A stretch of 64,000 nt of DNA, taken from the NCBI GenBank assembly GCA_965261595.1, contig CBDHDG010000006.1, positions 1,568,001 through 1,632,000 on the forward strand, written 5' to 3'. Made by a program: the position numbers and the translations under genes. Position 1 is the first letter of the stretch; every line of letters begins with the position of its first letter. A model generated the notes under the pieces. It searched no databases. It had not been told where the DNA came from and was given only the letters and a program-made list of their open reading frames with translations. This DNA comes from a bacterium (GTDB lineage: Bacteria; UBA8248; JACPRG01; G963555815). Positions 31,239-56,039 of this stretch are shown one piece after another.

Positions 31239-32723
31239 TCAAGGAATCTGCGCCGCCACGGCGGAGATTCCCTTGAACAGACCGGCCACGGAGACCTTGG
31301 CCGCTTCGAGGAAGGGATGGGGGTATACGCCGATCACCAAGACGCCGGCGACCATGATCGCCAACCCGATGGTCAGGGGGACGGCATTCGAGGTGTGGAT
31401 CTTCCCCGCCGGCTCCTGCATGTACATCAGCATCACGACCCGGAAGTAGTAGTAGAGGGAAATCGCGCTGTTCAACAGACCGATGACGGCCAGCCAGATG
31501 AAGCCGGCATCGACGGCGGCGGCGAAGATGTAGAACTTCCCGACAAACCCGGCGGTGGGCGGGAGGCCCGTAAGGCTCAGGAAGAAAATCAGGAGCGCCA
31601 GCGCGGGCCACGGATGCTGCCGAGCCAGGCCCCGGAAGTCCTCCAGCCGGTCCCCGCGCATACTCGGGCGGCAGAGCAGGATGATCACGGCGAACGCGCC
31701 CAGGTTCGTGAACAGGTACGCCGCCAGGTAGAGCAGGATGCTGGCGATCCCCATCTGGGTCGCGACAACGAGACCGATCAGGATGTAGCCGGCGTGAGCG
31801 ATGCTGGAATAGGCCAACATGCGCTTCAGGTTGGTCTGGACCATCGCCGCGATGTTGCCCCACGTCATGCTCACGGCGGCCAGCAGCCAGAGCAGGATAC
31901 GCCACTGATCCATCGAATCGCCGAAGGCCACCAGGAAGACCCGAACCAGGGCCGCGAAGGCCCCCGCCTTCGTCCCCACGGACATGAAGGCCGTGATGGA
32001 GGTCGGGGCGCCCTGGTAGGCGTCGGGCGCCCACATGTGGAAGGGGACCAGGGCGACCTTGAAGGCGAAACCGGCCGTCAAAAGGATGATGGCCAGCGTC
32101 AGGATCGGGCTCCCCCCGGTGCCGGAGGCCAAGGCCTCCCGAATGCCGTCCAGGTAGAGGGTCCCGGTGTAGCCGTAGATCAACGCGATGCCGTACAGAA
32201 CGATGGCCGAGCTGAAGATCCCCAGGAGGAAGTACTTGATGCCGCCCTCCTGCGACATCAGATCCCGCTTCAGGAAGCCGACGAGCAAGTACACCGGAAT
32301 GGAGAGAAGCTCGAGTCCGATATAGATCGTGAGGAGGTCGTTCCCCGAGGCCAGCACCATCATGCCGATGGTCGAGAATAGGATCAGGGCGTAATACTCG
32401 CCCCGGTTGATGTCCTCGATTTTGAGATAGCGGAACGAGATCAGGATCGTCAGAAACGCCACGCCCAGGAAGATGAACTTGAAGAAGGTGGAGAAATCGT
32501 CCACCCGGTACATCCCCCCGAACAGCTTTACGTCCGTCCCGATCCGCCCGGCCAGAAAGACGCCCGCCACGACGAGGCCCGCCAGCGCCAGGAACCCTGA
32601 GAACCCCTTCCTCTTGGGGGACAGAAAGAGGTCCACCAAAATGATCGCGCAGACGAGCACGGTCATGGCAATCTCGGGCAGAATCGGCCCGAGCTGAACC
32701 TTGGGCAGAACGATGGGATCCAT
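31239..32723 (-). CDS. nuoN: complex I subunit N (operon 2)
   Basis: GLELLS, KYFLLG, FKVALVPFHMWAPDAYQGAP and KRMLAYSSIAH. Confidence 0.93.
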   Translation of the reverse strand: MDPIVLPKVQLGPILPEIAMTVLVCAIILVDLFLSPKRKGFSGFLALAGLVVAGVFLAGRIGTDVKLFGGMYRVDDFSTFFKFIFLGVAFLTILISFRYLKIEDINRGEYYALILFSTIGMMVLASGNDLLTIYIGLELLSIPVYLLVGFLKRDLMSQEGGIKYFLLGIFSSAIVLYGIALIYGYTGTLYLDGIREALASGTGGSPILTLAIILLTAGFAFKVALVPFHMWAPDAYQGAPTSITAFMSVGTKAGAFAALVRVFLVAFGDSMDQWRILLWLLAAVSMTWGNIAAMVQTNLKRMLAYSSIAHAGYILIGLVVATQMGIASILLYLAAYLFTNLGAFAVIILLCRPSMRGDRLEDFRGLARQHPWPALALLIFFLSLTGLPPTAGFVGKFYIFAAAVDAGFIWLAVIGLLNSAISLYYYFRVVMLMYMQEPAGKIHTSNAVPLTIGLAIMVAGVLVIGVYPHPFLEAAKVSVAGLFKGISAVAAQIP

Positions 32724-32726
32724 GGA

Positions 32727-34367
32727 CTATTTTCCCGAAACGCCGCGCTTGAATTGGGACACCAGCGCCCGGACCTCTTCGGCGGACCGGGGCGGGACCT
32801 TCGGCAGGACCGCCGGCCGCGCGAAGGCCTTGCCGTCGATGGGCTTGCCCGCCTTGGCCAGATTAATCTGGCGGACCAGATTGTTCACCGCGGGCTCCAG
32901 GATTCGCAGATAGGGCTTCGGATAAATCCCGATCCAGAACATGAGGATGATCAGCGGCATCAGGTAGATCACCTCCCGCTTGTTCAGGTCGGCCAGGCCC
33001 TCGTTCTCGGGCTTGTCCACGCCCCCGAACATCATCCGCTGGAAGAGCCACAGCATGTAGGCCGCCCCCAGGACGATGCCGAGCACGGCGAAGGCCGCGT
33101 AGATCTTGCTCACTTGGAAGGCCCCCACCAGGATGAGGAACTCGCCCACGAACCCGTTGAGGCCCGGCAGCCCGATGGAGGAAAACATGGTGATGGCGAA
33201 GAAGACGGTGAACACGGGGATCACCTTCGCGAGGCCGCCGAAGTCGGAGATCTCCCGCGTGTGCCTGCGCTCGTAGAGGATCCCGACGATGAGGAAGAGC
33301 GCCCCCGTGGACAGCCCGTGGTTGATGTTCTGGAGCAGCGCGCCCACCAGCCCCTGGGAATTGAGTGCGAAGATGCCCAGCATGACGAAGCCGAGATGGC
33401 TCACCGAGCTGTAGGCCACGAGCTTCTTCACATCGCTCTGCGCCATGGCCACCAGGGCCCCGTAGATGATCCCGATGATGGCCAAAAGGGCCATGAACGG
33501 AACCATCGTCTCACTGGCCTTGGGCAGAAGCGGCAGGCTGAACCGGACGAAGCCATAGGTCCCCATCTTCAGGAGGACGCCGGCCAGGATGACGCTGCCC
33601 GCCGTGGGGGCCTCGACGTGGGCGTCGGGCAGCCAAGTGTGGAACGGGAACATCGGGACCTTGATGGCGAACCCAACGAAGAGCGCGAGGAAGATCCAGA
33701 ACTGGTGCTCCGCCGGAAGCCTGGGCGCCATCTTGTAGAGCTCGAGGAGGTTGAAAGTCAGCTCACCCGAGCCGTACTCCGGATTGGCGTTCAGGAAGTA
33801 CAAGGCCAGGAACCCAAGCAGGAGCAGCACGCTGCCCACCAGGGTGTAGAGGAAGAACTTGATGGCCGCGTACAGCTTGCGGGGGCCGCCCCAGATCCCG
33901 ATGAGGAAATACATCGGGACCAGCATGATCTCCCAGAAAACGTAAAAGAGGAAGAGATCCAGGGAGACGAAGACGCCCAGCATTCCGGTCTCGAGGATCA
34001 GCAGACTGACGTAATACTCCTTCTGCCGTTCCTTGACCGCTTTGTAAGAGCAAAGAATCGCGATCGAGCTCAGGAGCGTCGTCAAGACGATGAGCAGGAT
34101 GCTGATCCCGTCCACGCCGATGGAATACTTCACCCCGAGGGAGGGGATCCAGGAGTACTCCTCCACGTACTGCATCTGCACGTTCTCGGCCTCGAAGCCG
34201 GGAAGCAGCCACAGGGAGAAGCCCAACACCAGAAGCGAGACCACAAAGGCGAAGTTCCTGATGGCCCCCGTCTTGTCCCGGGGAAAGAACAGCATCATGG
34301 CCACGGCCCCCGCGAGGGGGAGGAAAACCATGTACGTCAAAATGGGAAATCCGAGAACGTTCGTCAT
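32727..34367 (-). CDS. nuoM: complex I subunit M (operon 2), C-terminal extension
   Basis: FYVFWE, KVPMFPFHTWLPDAHVEAPT and FVGEF. Confidence 0.94.
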   Translation of the reverse strand: MTNVLGFPILTYMVFLPLAGAVAMMLFFPRDKTGAIRNFAFVVSLLVLGFSLWLLPGFEAENVQMQYVEEYSWIPSLGVKYSIGVDGISILLIVLTTLLSSIAILCSYKAVKERQKEYYVSLLILETGMLGVFVSLDLFLFYVFWEIMLVPMYFLIGIWGGPRKLYAAIKFFLYTLVGSVLLLLGFLALYFLNANPEYGSGELTFNLLELYKMAPRLPAEHQFWIFLALFVGFAIKVPMFPFHTWLPDAHVEAPTAGSVILAGVLLKMGTYGFVRFSLPLLPKASETMVPFMALLAIIGIIYGALVAMAQSDVKKLVAYSSVSHLGFVMLGIFALNSQGLVGALLQNINHGLSTGALFLIVGILYERRHTREISDFGGLAKVIPVFTVFFAITMFSSIGLPGLNGFVGEFLILVGAFQVSKIYAAFAVLGIVLGAAYMLWLFQRMMFGGVDKPENEGLADLNKREVIYLMPLIILMFWIGIYPKPYLRILEPAVNNLVRQINLAKAGKPIDGKAFARPAVLPKVPPRSAEEVRALVSQFKRGVSGK

Positions 34368-34455
34368 TGAATTCGGTCCTTTGAAGCGCTCCGACCTTCC
34401 ACGAGTCTCCCCGTATCCTGCCCCGCCCTGCCGGGGTCAGGCCGGAATCACTCCT

Positions 34456-55106: not shown

Positions 55107-55199
55107 GCCAAGATCCGGAACTATCCCCGGAAACTTATCCATGCCATCACACGGCGTTATCCCAATAACCGGCGCAGGCGCCTTTCGGGTGTTCCGTTA

Positions 55200-55679
55200 T
55201 CAGGCCTTCTCTTTCAGGGATTCGTTCTCGATCTTGGCCTGAAGCTTCATGATGGAATCGATGAGGGTTTCAGGCCTTGGAGGGCAACCCGGGACGTAGA
55301 CGTCCACGGGAATGATTCGGTCTACGCCCTGGACGAGCGCGTAGTTGTTGAAGACGCCGCCCGTCGATGCGCAGGCGCCCATGGAGATCACCCATTTGGG
55401 CTCGGGCATCTGATCGTAAATCCGCTTGACCACCGGGGCCATCTTTTGGGACACACGGCCCGCGACGATCATCACGTCCGCCTGCCGGGGAGATCCCCGA
55501 AAGACCTCCGCCCCGAACCGGGCCAGGTCGAATCGGGAGGCCGACGTCGCCATCATCTCGATCGCGCAACAGGCCAACCCGAACAGGGCGGGCCAAAGCG
55601 AGTTCTTTCTCGCCCAGTTGACCAGGTCCTCGAGGCGGGCCAGGACGACGTTGTCCTTCAGTTGTTCTTCCAGTCCCAT
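55200..55679 (-). CDS. nuoB: complex I subunit B (operon 1)
   Basis: [13 protein letters not shown] and GCPPRPE. Confidence 0.95.
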
Positions 55680-55682
55680 GCG

Positions 55683-56039
55683 CTATTTCCAGTCCAGGGC
55701 GCCGCGCCGCCAGACGTACACCAAGCTCAGGCCGAGAATCCCGATGAAAACGGCCATCTCGATGAACCCGAACACCTTGAGCTCGCGAAAAACAACCGCC
55801 CAAGGGTACATGAACACCGTCTCGATGTCGAACAGGATGAAGAGCACCGACACCATGTAGAACTTGACGGAGAACCGGACCCGGGCGTCCCCGACGGCCT
55901 CGACGCCGCATTCGTAGGGGCTGTCTTTTACGACGCTTCGCCGCCGCCGCCCCAACAGGGAGGAGACCAGCAGGTTCAAGGCCGCGAATCCCGCCACGAC
56001 GACCAGCATCGCGAATATCGGAAAATAACCCGCAAGCAT
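55683..56039 (-). CDS. nuoA: complex I subunit A (operon 1)
   Basis: PYECG, FDIE, YPWA and RGALDW. Confidence 0.94.

Follow-up and report, generated by a model that had tools for sequence, protein, structure and literature searches.

How does a complex I-type enzyme pass electrons to quinone when its operon encodes no NuoI? This question is raised by positions 31239-56039 of the window analysed here (the whole stretch of 64,000 nucleotides, or 64 kb, from contig CBDHDG010000006.1), where a full series of complex I genes, nuoA-N (set 1), is followed on the same strand by a ten-gene series (set 2) without nuoE, nuoF, nuoG and nuoI. NuoI carries two iron-sulfur (Fe-S) clusters leading to cluster N2 and, in enzymes devoid of the NADH/flavin mononucleotide (FMN) module (N module), it is thought to be the ferredoxin docking site. 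The answer we favour, and on balance hold to be the probable one, is that set 2 encodes a complex I-type enzyme of the ordinary N-module-less kind, with its NuoI coming from a second nuoI outside the window. The impression of a 'complex I without NuoI' is most likely a result of viewing one 64-kb window.

Two tandem complex I gene sets

The minus strand of 31239-56039 holds 24 consecutive open reading frames (ORFs), each matching one Nuo subunit Pfam family (E 1e-29 to 1e-131); start codons were refined by reference to the nearest stop upstream of each ORF (Table 1). Set 1 runs from 56039 down to 41313 in the order A B C D E F G H I J K L M N and has the canonical 14-subunit complex I content, with NuoA-N complete and in A-N order over 14 consecutive ORFs. 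Its NADH/FMN module is present as NuoE, NuoF and NuoG, the last with a domain set that includes Fe-S domains. Set 2 runs from 41153 down to 31239 in the order A B C D H J K L M N, with nuoD2 and nuoH2 about 70 nt apart and no nuoE, nuoF or nuoG between them. The preliminary description of the window, that of 24 co-oriented and intact nuo genes forming a full A-N series and then a ten-gene set without E, F, G and I, is borne out by the Pfam and ORF analyses, and the 82-nt gap it gave between nuoH2 and nuoJ2 is confirmed by the end of the former at 37408 and the start of the latter at 37325.

The candidate promoter of its own that was also ascribed to set 2 holds up weakly. There is a single -35/-10-like match in the spacer between nuoN1 and nuoA2 (9/12 consensus positions, 41283-41256), but this sigma-70-like match does not stand out from the shuffle expectation (4 such matches in 30800-42000, 1.9 +/- 1.4 in shuffled sequences). 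No terminator-like site was detected on scanning the 159-nt spacer; given the weak promoter match and this result, separate and joint transcription of the two sets are both possible.

Table 1 Genes and spacers of the two nuo sets and of the adjoining formate dehydrogenase pair.
Feature	Position	Strand	Evidence and remarks
nuoA1	55683..56039	-	PF00507, E 6.8e-38; ATG start 56039
nuoB1	55200..55679	-	PF01058, E 1.3e-31
nuoC1	54378..55070	-	PF00329, E 1.2e-42; start 55070 or 55076
nuoD1, long form, 411 aa	53150..54385	-	PF00346, E 3.8e-118; TIGR01962 full profile, one stretch
nuoE1	52584..53153	-	PF01257, E 6e-49
nuoF1	51310..52587	-	PF01512, PF10589, SLBB
nuoG1	48692..51250	-	Fer2_4, NADH-G_4Fe-4S_3, Fer4_Nqo3, Molybdopterin, Molydop_binding
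nuoH1	47712..48695	-	PF00146, E 2.1e-131
nuoI1, sole nuoI of window	47165..47683	-	Fer4 families; NF004537 NuoI 170.8 bits (cut-off 163); 2x CxxCxxCxxxC
nuoJ1	46653..47162	-	PF00499
nuoK1	46302..46640	-	PF00420
nuoL1	44387..46297	-	PF00361, PF00662, PF01010
nuoM1	42797..44350	-	PF00361
nuoN1	41313..42800	-	PF00361
nuoN1-nuoA2 spacer, 159 nt	41154..41312	-	one weak sigma-70-like match at 41283-41256
nuoA2	40761..41153	-	PF00507, E 6.4e-40
nuoB2	40294..40770	-	PF01058; NF005012 NuoB
nuoC2	39568..40278	-	PF00329 over residues 96-213
nuoD2, short form, 376 aa	38432..39562	-	PF00346; NF008974 and FpoD, one stretch each
nuoH2, 317 aa	37408..38361	-	PF00146, E 3.1e-127; identical 317-aa form in protein collection
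nuoH2-nuoJ2 spacer, 82 nt	37326..37407	-	usual nuoI position
nuoJ2	36810..37325	-	PF00499
nuoK2	36461..36763	-	PF00420
nuoL2	34456..36450	-	PF00361, PF00662
nuoM2	32727..34367	-	PF00361
nuoN2	31239..32723	-	PF00361
NuoE/NuoF-like fusion, 574 aa	56384-58108	+	FMN-domain family over nearly whole profile; no di-cluster motif
formate dehydrogenase alpha, 929 aa	58176-60965	+	TIGR01591, 802 bits (cut-off 666); two CxxCxxCxxxC

All ten ORFs of set 2 are uninterrupted, and their third-position guanine-cytosine (GC) content, 0.79-0.90, is similar to that of set 1. Conservation was assessed against 80 related loci (47-63% identity), found among the matches listed in a scan of genome contigs that yielded at least 590 stretches; all locus counts given below rest on these 80. 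In columns at least 95% conserved among the homologues from these loci, the conserved residue is kept in NuoA2 (13/13), NuoB2 (44/45), NuoD2 (85/87), NuoH2 (42/42), NuoJ2 (12/12), NuoK2 (15/16), NuoL2 (102/102), NuoM2 (59/60) and NuoN2 (59/62), a retention as good as that of set 1; for NuoC there were two comparison rows, making the test uninformative. By Pfam and conserved columns, the Q module (NuoB, NuoC, NuoD) and the membrane arm (NuoA, NuoH, NuoJ, NuoK, NuoL, NuoM, NuoN) of set 2 are complete, and the presence of NuoB2, NuoC2, NuoD2 and NuoH2 sets it apart from the Mrp-type antiporters, which are non-redox relatives. NuoB2 retains the four-cysteine pattern CC...C...C(P) (as CC..., SC... 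and GCPP), which we take to be the ligands of cluster N2. The intact frames, the conserved columns and this cysteine pattern together give set 2 the look of a working enzyme. At its N terminus NuoC2 is extended by about 70 residues, with a very high content of Glu, Asp and Pro and no cysteine, and this extension is retained in seven of the nine members (228-236 aa) of its 90% cluster; the Pfam domain begins at residue 96.

The proteins of the two sets are 39-60% identical (60% for NuoB, 50% for NuoD and 58% for NuoH). At the DNA level there are no near-identical repeats between them, the best being 83% over 95 nt. These values point to old paralogues and not to a recent duplication, and by this divergence set 2 is assigned as an old paralogue of set 1.

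The affiliation of set 2 was assessed from NuoD. NuoD2, whose relatives are also 376 aa long, gives a single-stretch match with both the 366-position NuoD model NF008974 and FpoD, but matches the long model TIGR01962 in two stretches. A quick maximum-likelihood tree was made from 90 rows (the 80 loci, the two window copies and eight database proteins, none dropped), in which a long-NuoD clade is separated from a short-NuoD clade (support 96). NuoD1 lies in the long clade, its nearest row being that of locus L029 (66%). NuoD2 lies in the short clade, in a seven-row group (support 99) with two relatives from its own lineage (79-85% identity) and four outside proteins, its nearest relatives beyond that lineage, from clusters named Nitrospinota, Nitrospinaceae or Tectomicrobia; the 90%-identity clusters of both NuoD2 and NuoI1 have members named 'Nitrospinota bacterium'. 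The short clade also holds complete A-B-C-D-H-I-J-K-L-M-N operons from Ignavibacteriota, Chloroflexota, Bacillota and Acidobacteriota, and this position alongside complete 11-gene operons places set 2 with the N-module-less '11-subunit' kind. As judged from these alignments, set 2 is a member of that short-NuoD clade. The absence of about 25 residues from NuoD2 was also considered as the loss of a contact with NuoI; this idea was rejected because the short form is found across the clade, nuoI-bearing operons included, and because the curated models for short NuoD and for FpoD can be aligned with NuoD2 from one end to the other.

Like set 2, the N-module-less 11-subunit enzymes (those of anaerobes, Ignavibacteriota and Chloroflexota, as well as Fpo and NDH-1) have no E, F or G, and their order of B-C-D Q module and A-H-J-K-L-M-N arm is the same. 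Unlike their operons, set 2 has no nuoI between nuoH and nuoJ.

Operons without nuoI in related loci and other genomes

The ORFs of the 80 loci were labelled by BLASTP against the 24 window proteins, and absences were confirmed by tblastn with NuoB1, NuoB2 and NuoI1. In 27 of the 80 loci, which come from other phyla, nuoH abuts nuoJ with no nuoI. Among the 46 '11-type' loci, nuoI is present in 27, nuoH and nuoJ are adjacent without it in 12 and the junction is unreadable in seven; the corresponding numbers for the 34 '14-type' loci are 11, 15 and eight. N-module-less sets normally keep nuoI, as had been stated at the outset (27 of the 39 '11-type' loci whose junction can be read), and still operons that lack it are no rarity. 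Acidobacteriota account for most of the nuoI-less loci; one locus is labelled Candidatus Udaeobacter, one is labelled Candidatus Limnocylindria, and one (L065) is that of a cultured organism, Acidipila rosea DSM 103428. No match to NuoI1 was found by tblastn anywhere in these 27 loci. Masked sequence was rejected as the cause of the missing nuoB and nuoI, since there is only one run of N (in L042) and the absences hold up in tblastn. On the quick NuoD tree, loci without nuoI turn up in several separate groups, with 12 changes when rows of unknown state are treated as a third label; nuoI has thus left the operon repeatedly.

Several other gene arrangements were seen in these loci. The genes nuoI and nuoB depart together, including in 15 otherwise complete A-C-D-E-F-G-H-J-K-L-M operons of Terriglobia and in the isolate Acidipila rosea. 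Of the 38 nuoI-bearing loci, 27 have nuoB upstream and 11, some with little upstream sequence, have none in view. In L022 and L024 (Acidobacteriota) the order is C-D-I-J-K-L-M-N-H, with nuoI right after nuoD and nuoH at the end of the block; nuoK was not detected in L022. The nuoI-less 11-type operon of L007 has three consecutive ORFs with NuoM as best match (H J K L M M M N), which may encode additional antiporter-like subunits or be pieces of a single gene.

A precedent for the layout is found in peatland Acidobacteria, for which 'nuoACDHJKLMN operons' are described by Hausmann et al. 2018 (PMC6018796; preprint 10.1101/197269). Table S2b of that paper lists, for the metagenome-assembled genome (MAG) SbA1, two operons in which nuoH and nuoJ have adjacent locus tags and, on other scaffolds, two nuoI genes and three nuoB genes. 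The acidobacterial loci of our own set (L002, L004-L007, L010, L011, L014 and others) resemble the window in that nuoH is followed by nuoJ without nuoI, most gaps being 6-140 nt, and those of the 11-type fall in the same NuoD clade as NuoD2. The window differs from them in that nuoB2 is retained between nuoA2 and nuoC2. The 14-type operon of Acidobacteriota is also without B and I, whereas operon 1 of the window is complete.

A second nuo set beside a canonical one (NUO-1) has also been described within the Nitrospinota. In Nitrospina gracilis this NUO-2 is scattered, with nuoACHIJKLMN, nuoEGD and lone nuoB2 and nuoF2 genes, and it was proposed to act in quinol-to-ferredoxin reverse electron flow for the reductive tricarboxylic acid (TCA) cycle (Lucker 2013, PMC3578206). 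Its NuoF2 is modified (no FMN site, extra Fe-S clusters), as is its NuoG2, which has an extra 4Fe-4S cluster (PMC3578206; PMC10839748). Set 2 is like NUO-2 of Nitrospina and the Nitrospinia in being a second set next to a canonical one in the same phylum. In the descriptions of the Nitrospinia, however, nuoI lies inside the NUO-2 cluster and the set has E, F and G in modified form, whereas set 2 is one A-B-C-D-H-J-K-L-M-N block with no NUO-2-type E, F or G next to it. Outside the Nitrospinia, most classes lack the second nuo set according to Kop et al. 2024 (PMC10839748).

A literature search with the exact gene string and with phrasings for lacking or missing nuoI returned no work that treats the arrangement as such. 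The combination of a retained nuoB with an absent nuoI, in tandem with a full operon, appears from the loci compared to be new, a minor novelty of gene organisation.

Source of NuoI for the second set

The gap between nuoH2 and nuoJ2 is comparable to other spacers of set 2, among them D2-H2 (see above) and L2-M2 (88 nt). A nuoI remnant in this spacer was rejected, the spacer being too short for a gene, and a special structure was rejected because its hairpin is no more stable than those of shuffled sequences (z -0.37). A six-frame scan of the window for CxxCxxCxxxC gave four motifs only, one pair in NuoI1 and the other in the 929-aa protein at 58176-60965. A NuoI domain fused into a set-2 protein was likewise rejected, as set 2 contains no extra Pfam domain and no such motif. 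With the 38 NuoI sequences of the loci as tblastn queries, single weak matches (E up to 0.01) fell in the 500-nt bins that start at 37500, 38500, 48000 and 53500. Within the window, no NuoI-type 2x[4Fe-4S] subunit is encoded with set 2.

To our knowledge, a NuoI homologue links the donor site to N2 in every characterised complex I relative, and from this family-wide pattern we infer that NuoI is still required; all members of the short-NuoD clade with a full operon have it. Set 2 would then provide a Q module (NuoB, NuoC, NuoD) and a full membrane arm (NuoA, NuoH, NuoJ, NuoK, NuoL, NuoM, NuoN), and the enzyme would couple quinone/quinol chemistry at cluster N2 to proton translocation. Electrons would come from, or in reverse go to, a donor other than NADH, for which ferredoxin is the usual proposal. 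The NuoI-type 2x[4Fe-4S] subunit would remain part of the complex and only its gene would have left the operon, so that NuoI would be provided in trans. Its likeliest source is a second nuoI lying elsewhere in the genome; this gene, like the electron donor and the direction in which the enzyme operates, is inferred. A second nuoI is rated above the sharing of NuoI1 because the number of stand-alone nuoI genes matches the number of operons in the acidobacterial case, because NUO-2 genes are scattered in the same phylum and because NuoI1 belongs to the other, 14-subunit clade.

If the second nuoI exists, set 2 is an ordinary scattered gene set, and calls of a 'missing subunit' made at the level of the operon are unreliable in surveys of complex I. 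Known Nitrospinota autotrophs are described as using the reductive TCA cycle (Lucker 2013, PMC3578206), and given this cycle in the phylum the set-2 enzyme would also be a candidate for quinol-to-ferredoxin reverse electron flow.

Several observations weigh against a second nuoI. None was found within the 64-kb window. The scan of genome contigs gave no relative above 63% identity among the matches listed, and with the NuoI of L001 as protein query, in a search that depends on shared words and so is no evidence of absence, none of the 120 listed out of 305 candidates was attributable to the lineage of the window. The acidobacterial precedent is no exact match, since nuoB is gone as well in all 27 nuoI-less loci; the check on related genomes proposed in the preliminary description thus returned the adjacency of nuoH and nuoJ, but the window's combination of absent nuoI and retained nuoB occurs in 0 of the 80 listed loci. 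In favour of a second nuoI, the wording of Kop et al. (PMC10839748) on one MAG, which may or may not be related to the window, implies two nuoI genes, though this wording may be loose.

The sharing of one subunit, by which NuoI1 would be assembled into both complexes and set 2 would supply an alternative Q module and membrane arm, is a tentative alternative that we consider rather unlikely. It had been put forward in the preliminary description and is ranked below a cognate nuoI elsewhere, which that description named only among the refuting outcomes. In its favour, nuoI1 is the only nuoI within 64 kb, and the two sets are tandem and co-oriented and, with no terminator-like site in the spacer that separates them, may be co-expressed. 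Cyanobacterial NDH-1 isoforms share a core and swap NdhD/NdhF paralogues, and to this extent offer a parallel, with one subunit pool serving several complex I-type assemblies; there, however, the whole core is shared and antiporter-like subunits are swapped, whereas in the window one Fe-S subunit would be shared between two sets that are complete in other respects. The sequence of NuoI1 argues in the other direction. It shares 65% identity with the NuoI of L029, in the 14-subunit clade, but 27-37% with the NuoI proteins of the closest short-NuoD operons (tblastn) and 35% with the first clade-mate row in the alignment. Its partner subunits have diverged between the sets to the extent given above for NuoB, NuoD and NuoH, and the stand-alone nuoI genes listed for SbA1 are two, equal to the number of complete nuoI-less operons and not one shared copy (PMC6018796). 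Were nuoI1 the only copy, one Fe-S subunit would serve two different Q modules and membrane arms, and the window would offer a simple natural system for complex I subunit exchange and donor specificity.

We regard as improbable a complex with no NuoI at all, in which N2 of NuoB2 would be fed by another Fe-S partner, the candidate being the alpha subunit of the formate dehydrogenase (Fdh) encoded at 58176-60965, to give a formate:quinone pump. We know of no complex I relative (Fpo, NDH-1, Ech or Mbh) without a NuoI homologue. Fdh alpha is the only other protein of the window with two CxxCxxCxxxC motifs, 25 of the 38 locus NuoI queries match it by tblastn, and a formate:quinone role was once tentatively annotated for a NUO-2-like complex of Kuenenia (Lucker 2013, PMC3578206). 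Against this, Fdh alpha passes the curated formate dehydrogenase model well above the cut-off (Table 1), it is paired with a NuoE/NuoF-like fusion in the usual make-up of a soluble NAD-linked enzyme, and the pair adjoins operon 1 and not operon 2. In the published acidobacterial case, moreover, the nuoI-less layout co-occurs with stand-alone nuoI genes (PMC6018796). Gene proximity aside, we found no positive support for such a complex, and nothing in favour of the earlier suggestion that a different ferredoxin-like partner docks on NuoB. A NuoI-free proton pump whose N2 exchanges electrons directly with an Fe-S protein (e.g. the di-cluster domain of Fdh alpha) is quite improbable; if real, it would represent a previously unknown wiring of the Q module, with the nuoB-kept, nuoI-less operon type seen in none of the 80 listed loci as its signature.

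It is very improbable that set 2 is a remnant, whether decaying or non-redox, or that nuoI was lost from the H-J junction through an artefact of assembly: a protein look-up gave no accession numbers for NuoH2 or NuoJ2 and so no independent check of the H2-J2 assembly, but the ten intact ORFs, the conserved columns and third-position GC like those of set 1 and the lack of near-identical repeats between the sets all argue against it, as do the recurrence of the same junction type in 27 independent listed loci and a related MAG with NuoD2 in the same 90% cluster, where the accession spacing, which covers NuoI1, NuoJ1 and NuoD2, is nine steps from NuoI1 to NuoD2, as gene order predicts.

Neighbouring genes

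The formate dehydrogenase pair is divergent from nuoA1 across a 344-nt spacer, and the NuoE/NuoF-like fusion and Fdh alpha look, from their domains, like an NAD-linked formate dehydrogenase. On the other side of the tandem sets, immediately downstream of nuoN2, the minus strand of 29015-31035 carries a repressor-like gene (242 aa) with helix-turn-helix and S24-peptidase domains and an ORF of 431 aa that matches no Pfam or NCBIfam family. GC reaches its minimum for the window (0.556) at 30001-32000, and there is a further dip to 0.57-0.58 at 4001-8000.

Three transposase genes or fragments were noted on the plus strand: an IS1595-family transposase (548-1402), a DDE group-1 transposase in two ORFs (4592-5955; profile positions 4-113 and 125-433) and a C-terminal fragment of a Mutator-family transposase (13710-14063). 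The last adjoins a UbiD-family decarboxylase gene (14149-15569, minus strand) that is split into two overlapping ORFs in separate frames, covering profile positions 6-127 and 130-200, which suggests a frameshift. Also on the minus strand are a sulfate-activation cluster (20335-24836), in which ATP sulfurylase and APS kinase genes lie beside two major facilitator superfamily transporter genes, and a gene for a 508-aa ThyX (26914-28440), whose two matched Thy1 stretches give it the look of a thymidylate synthase that is fused or duplicated internally.

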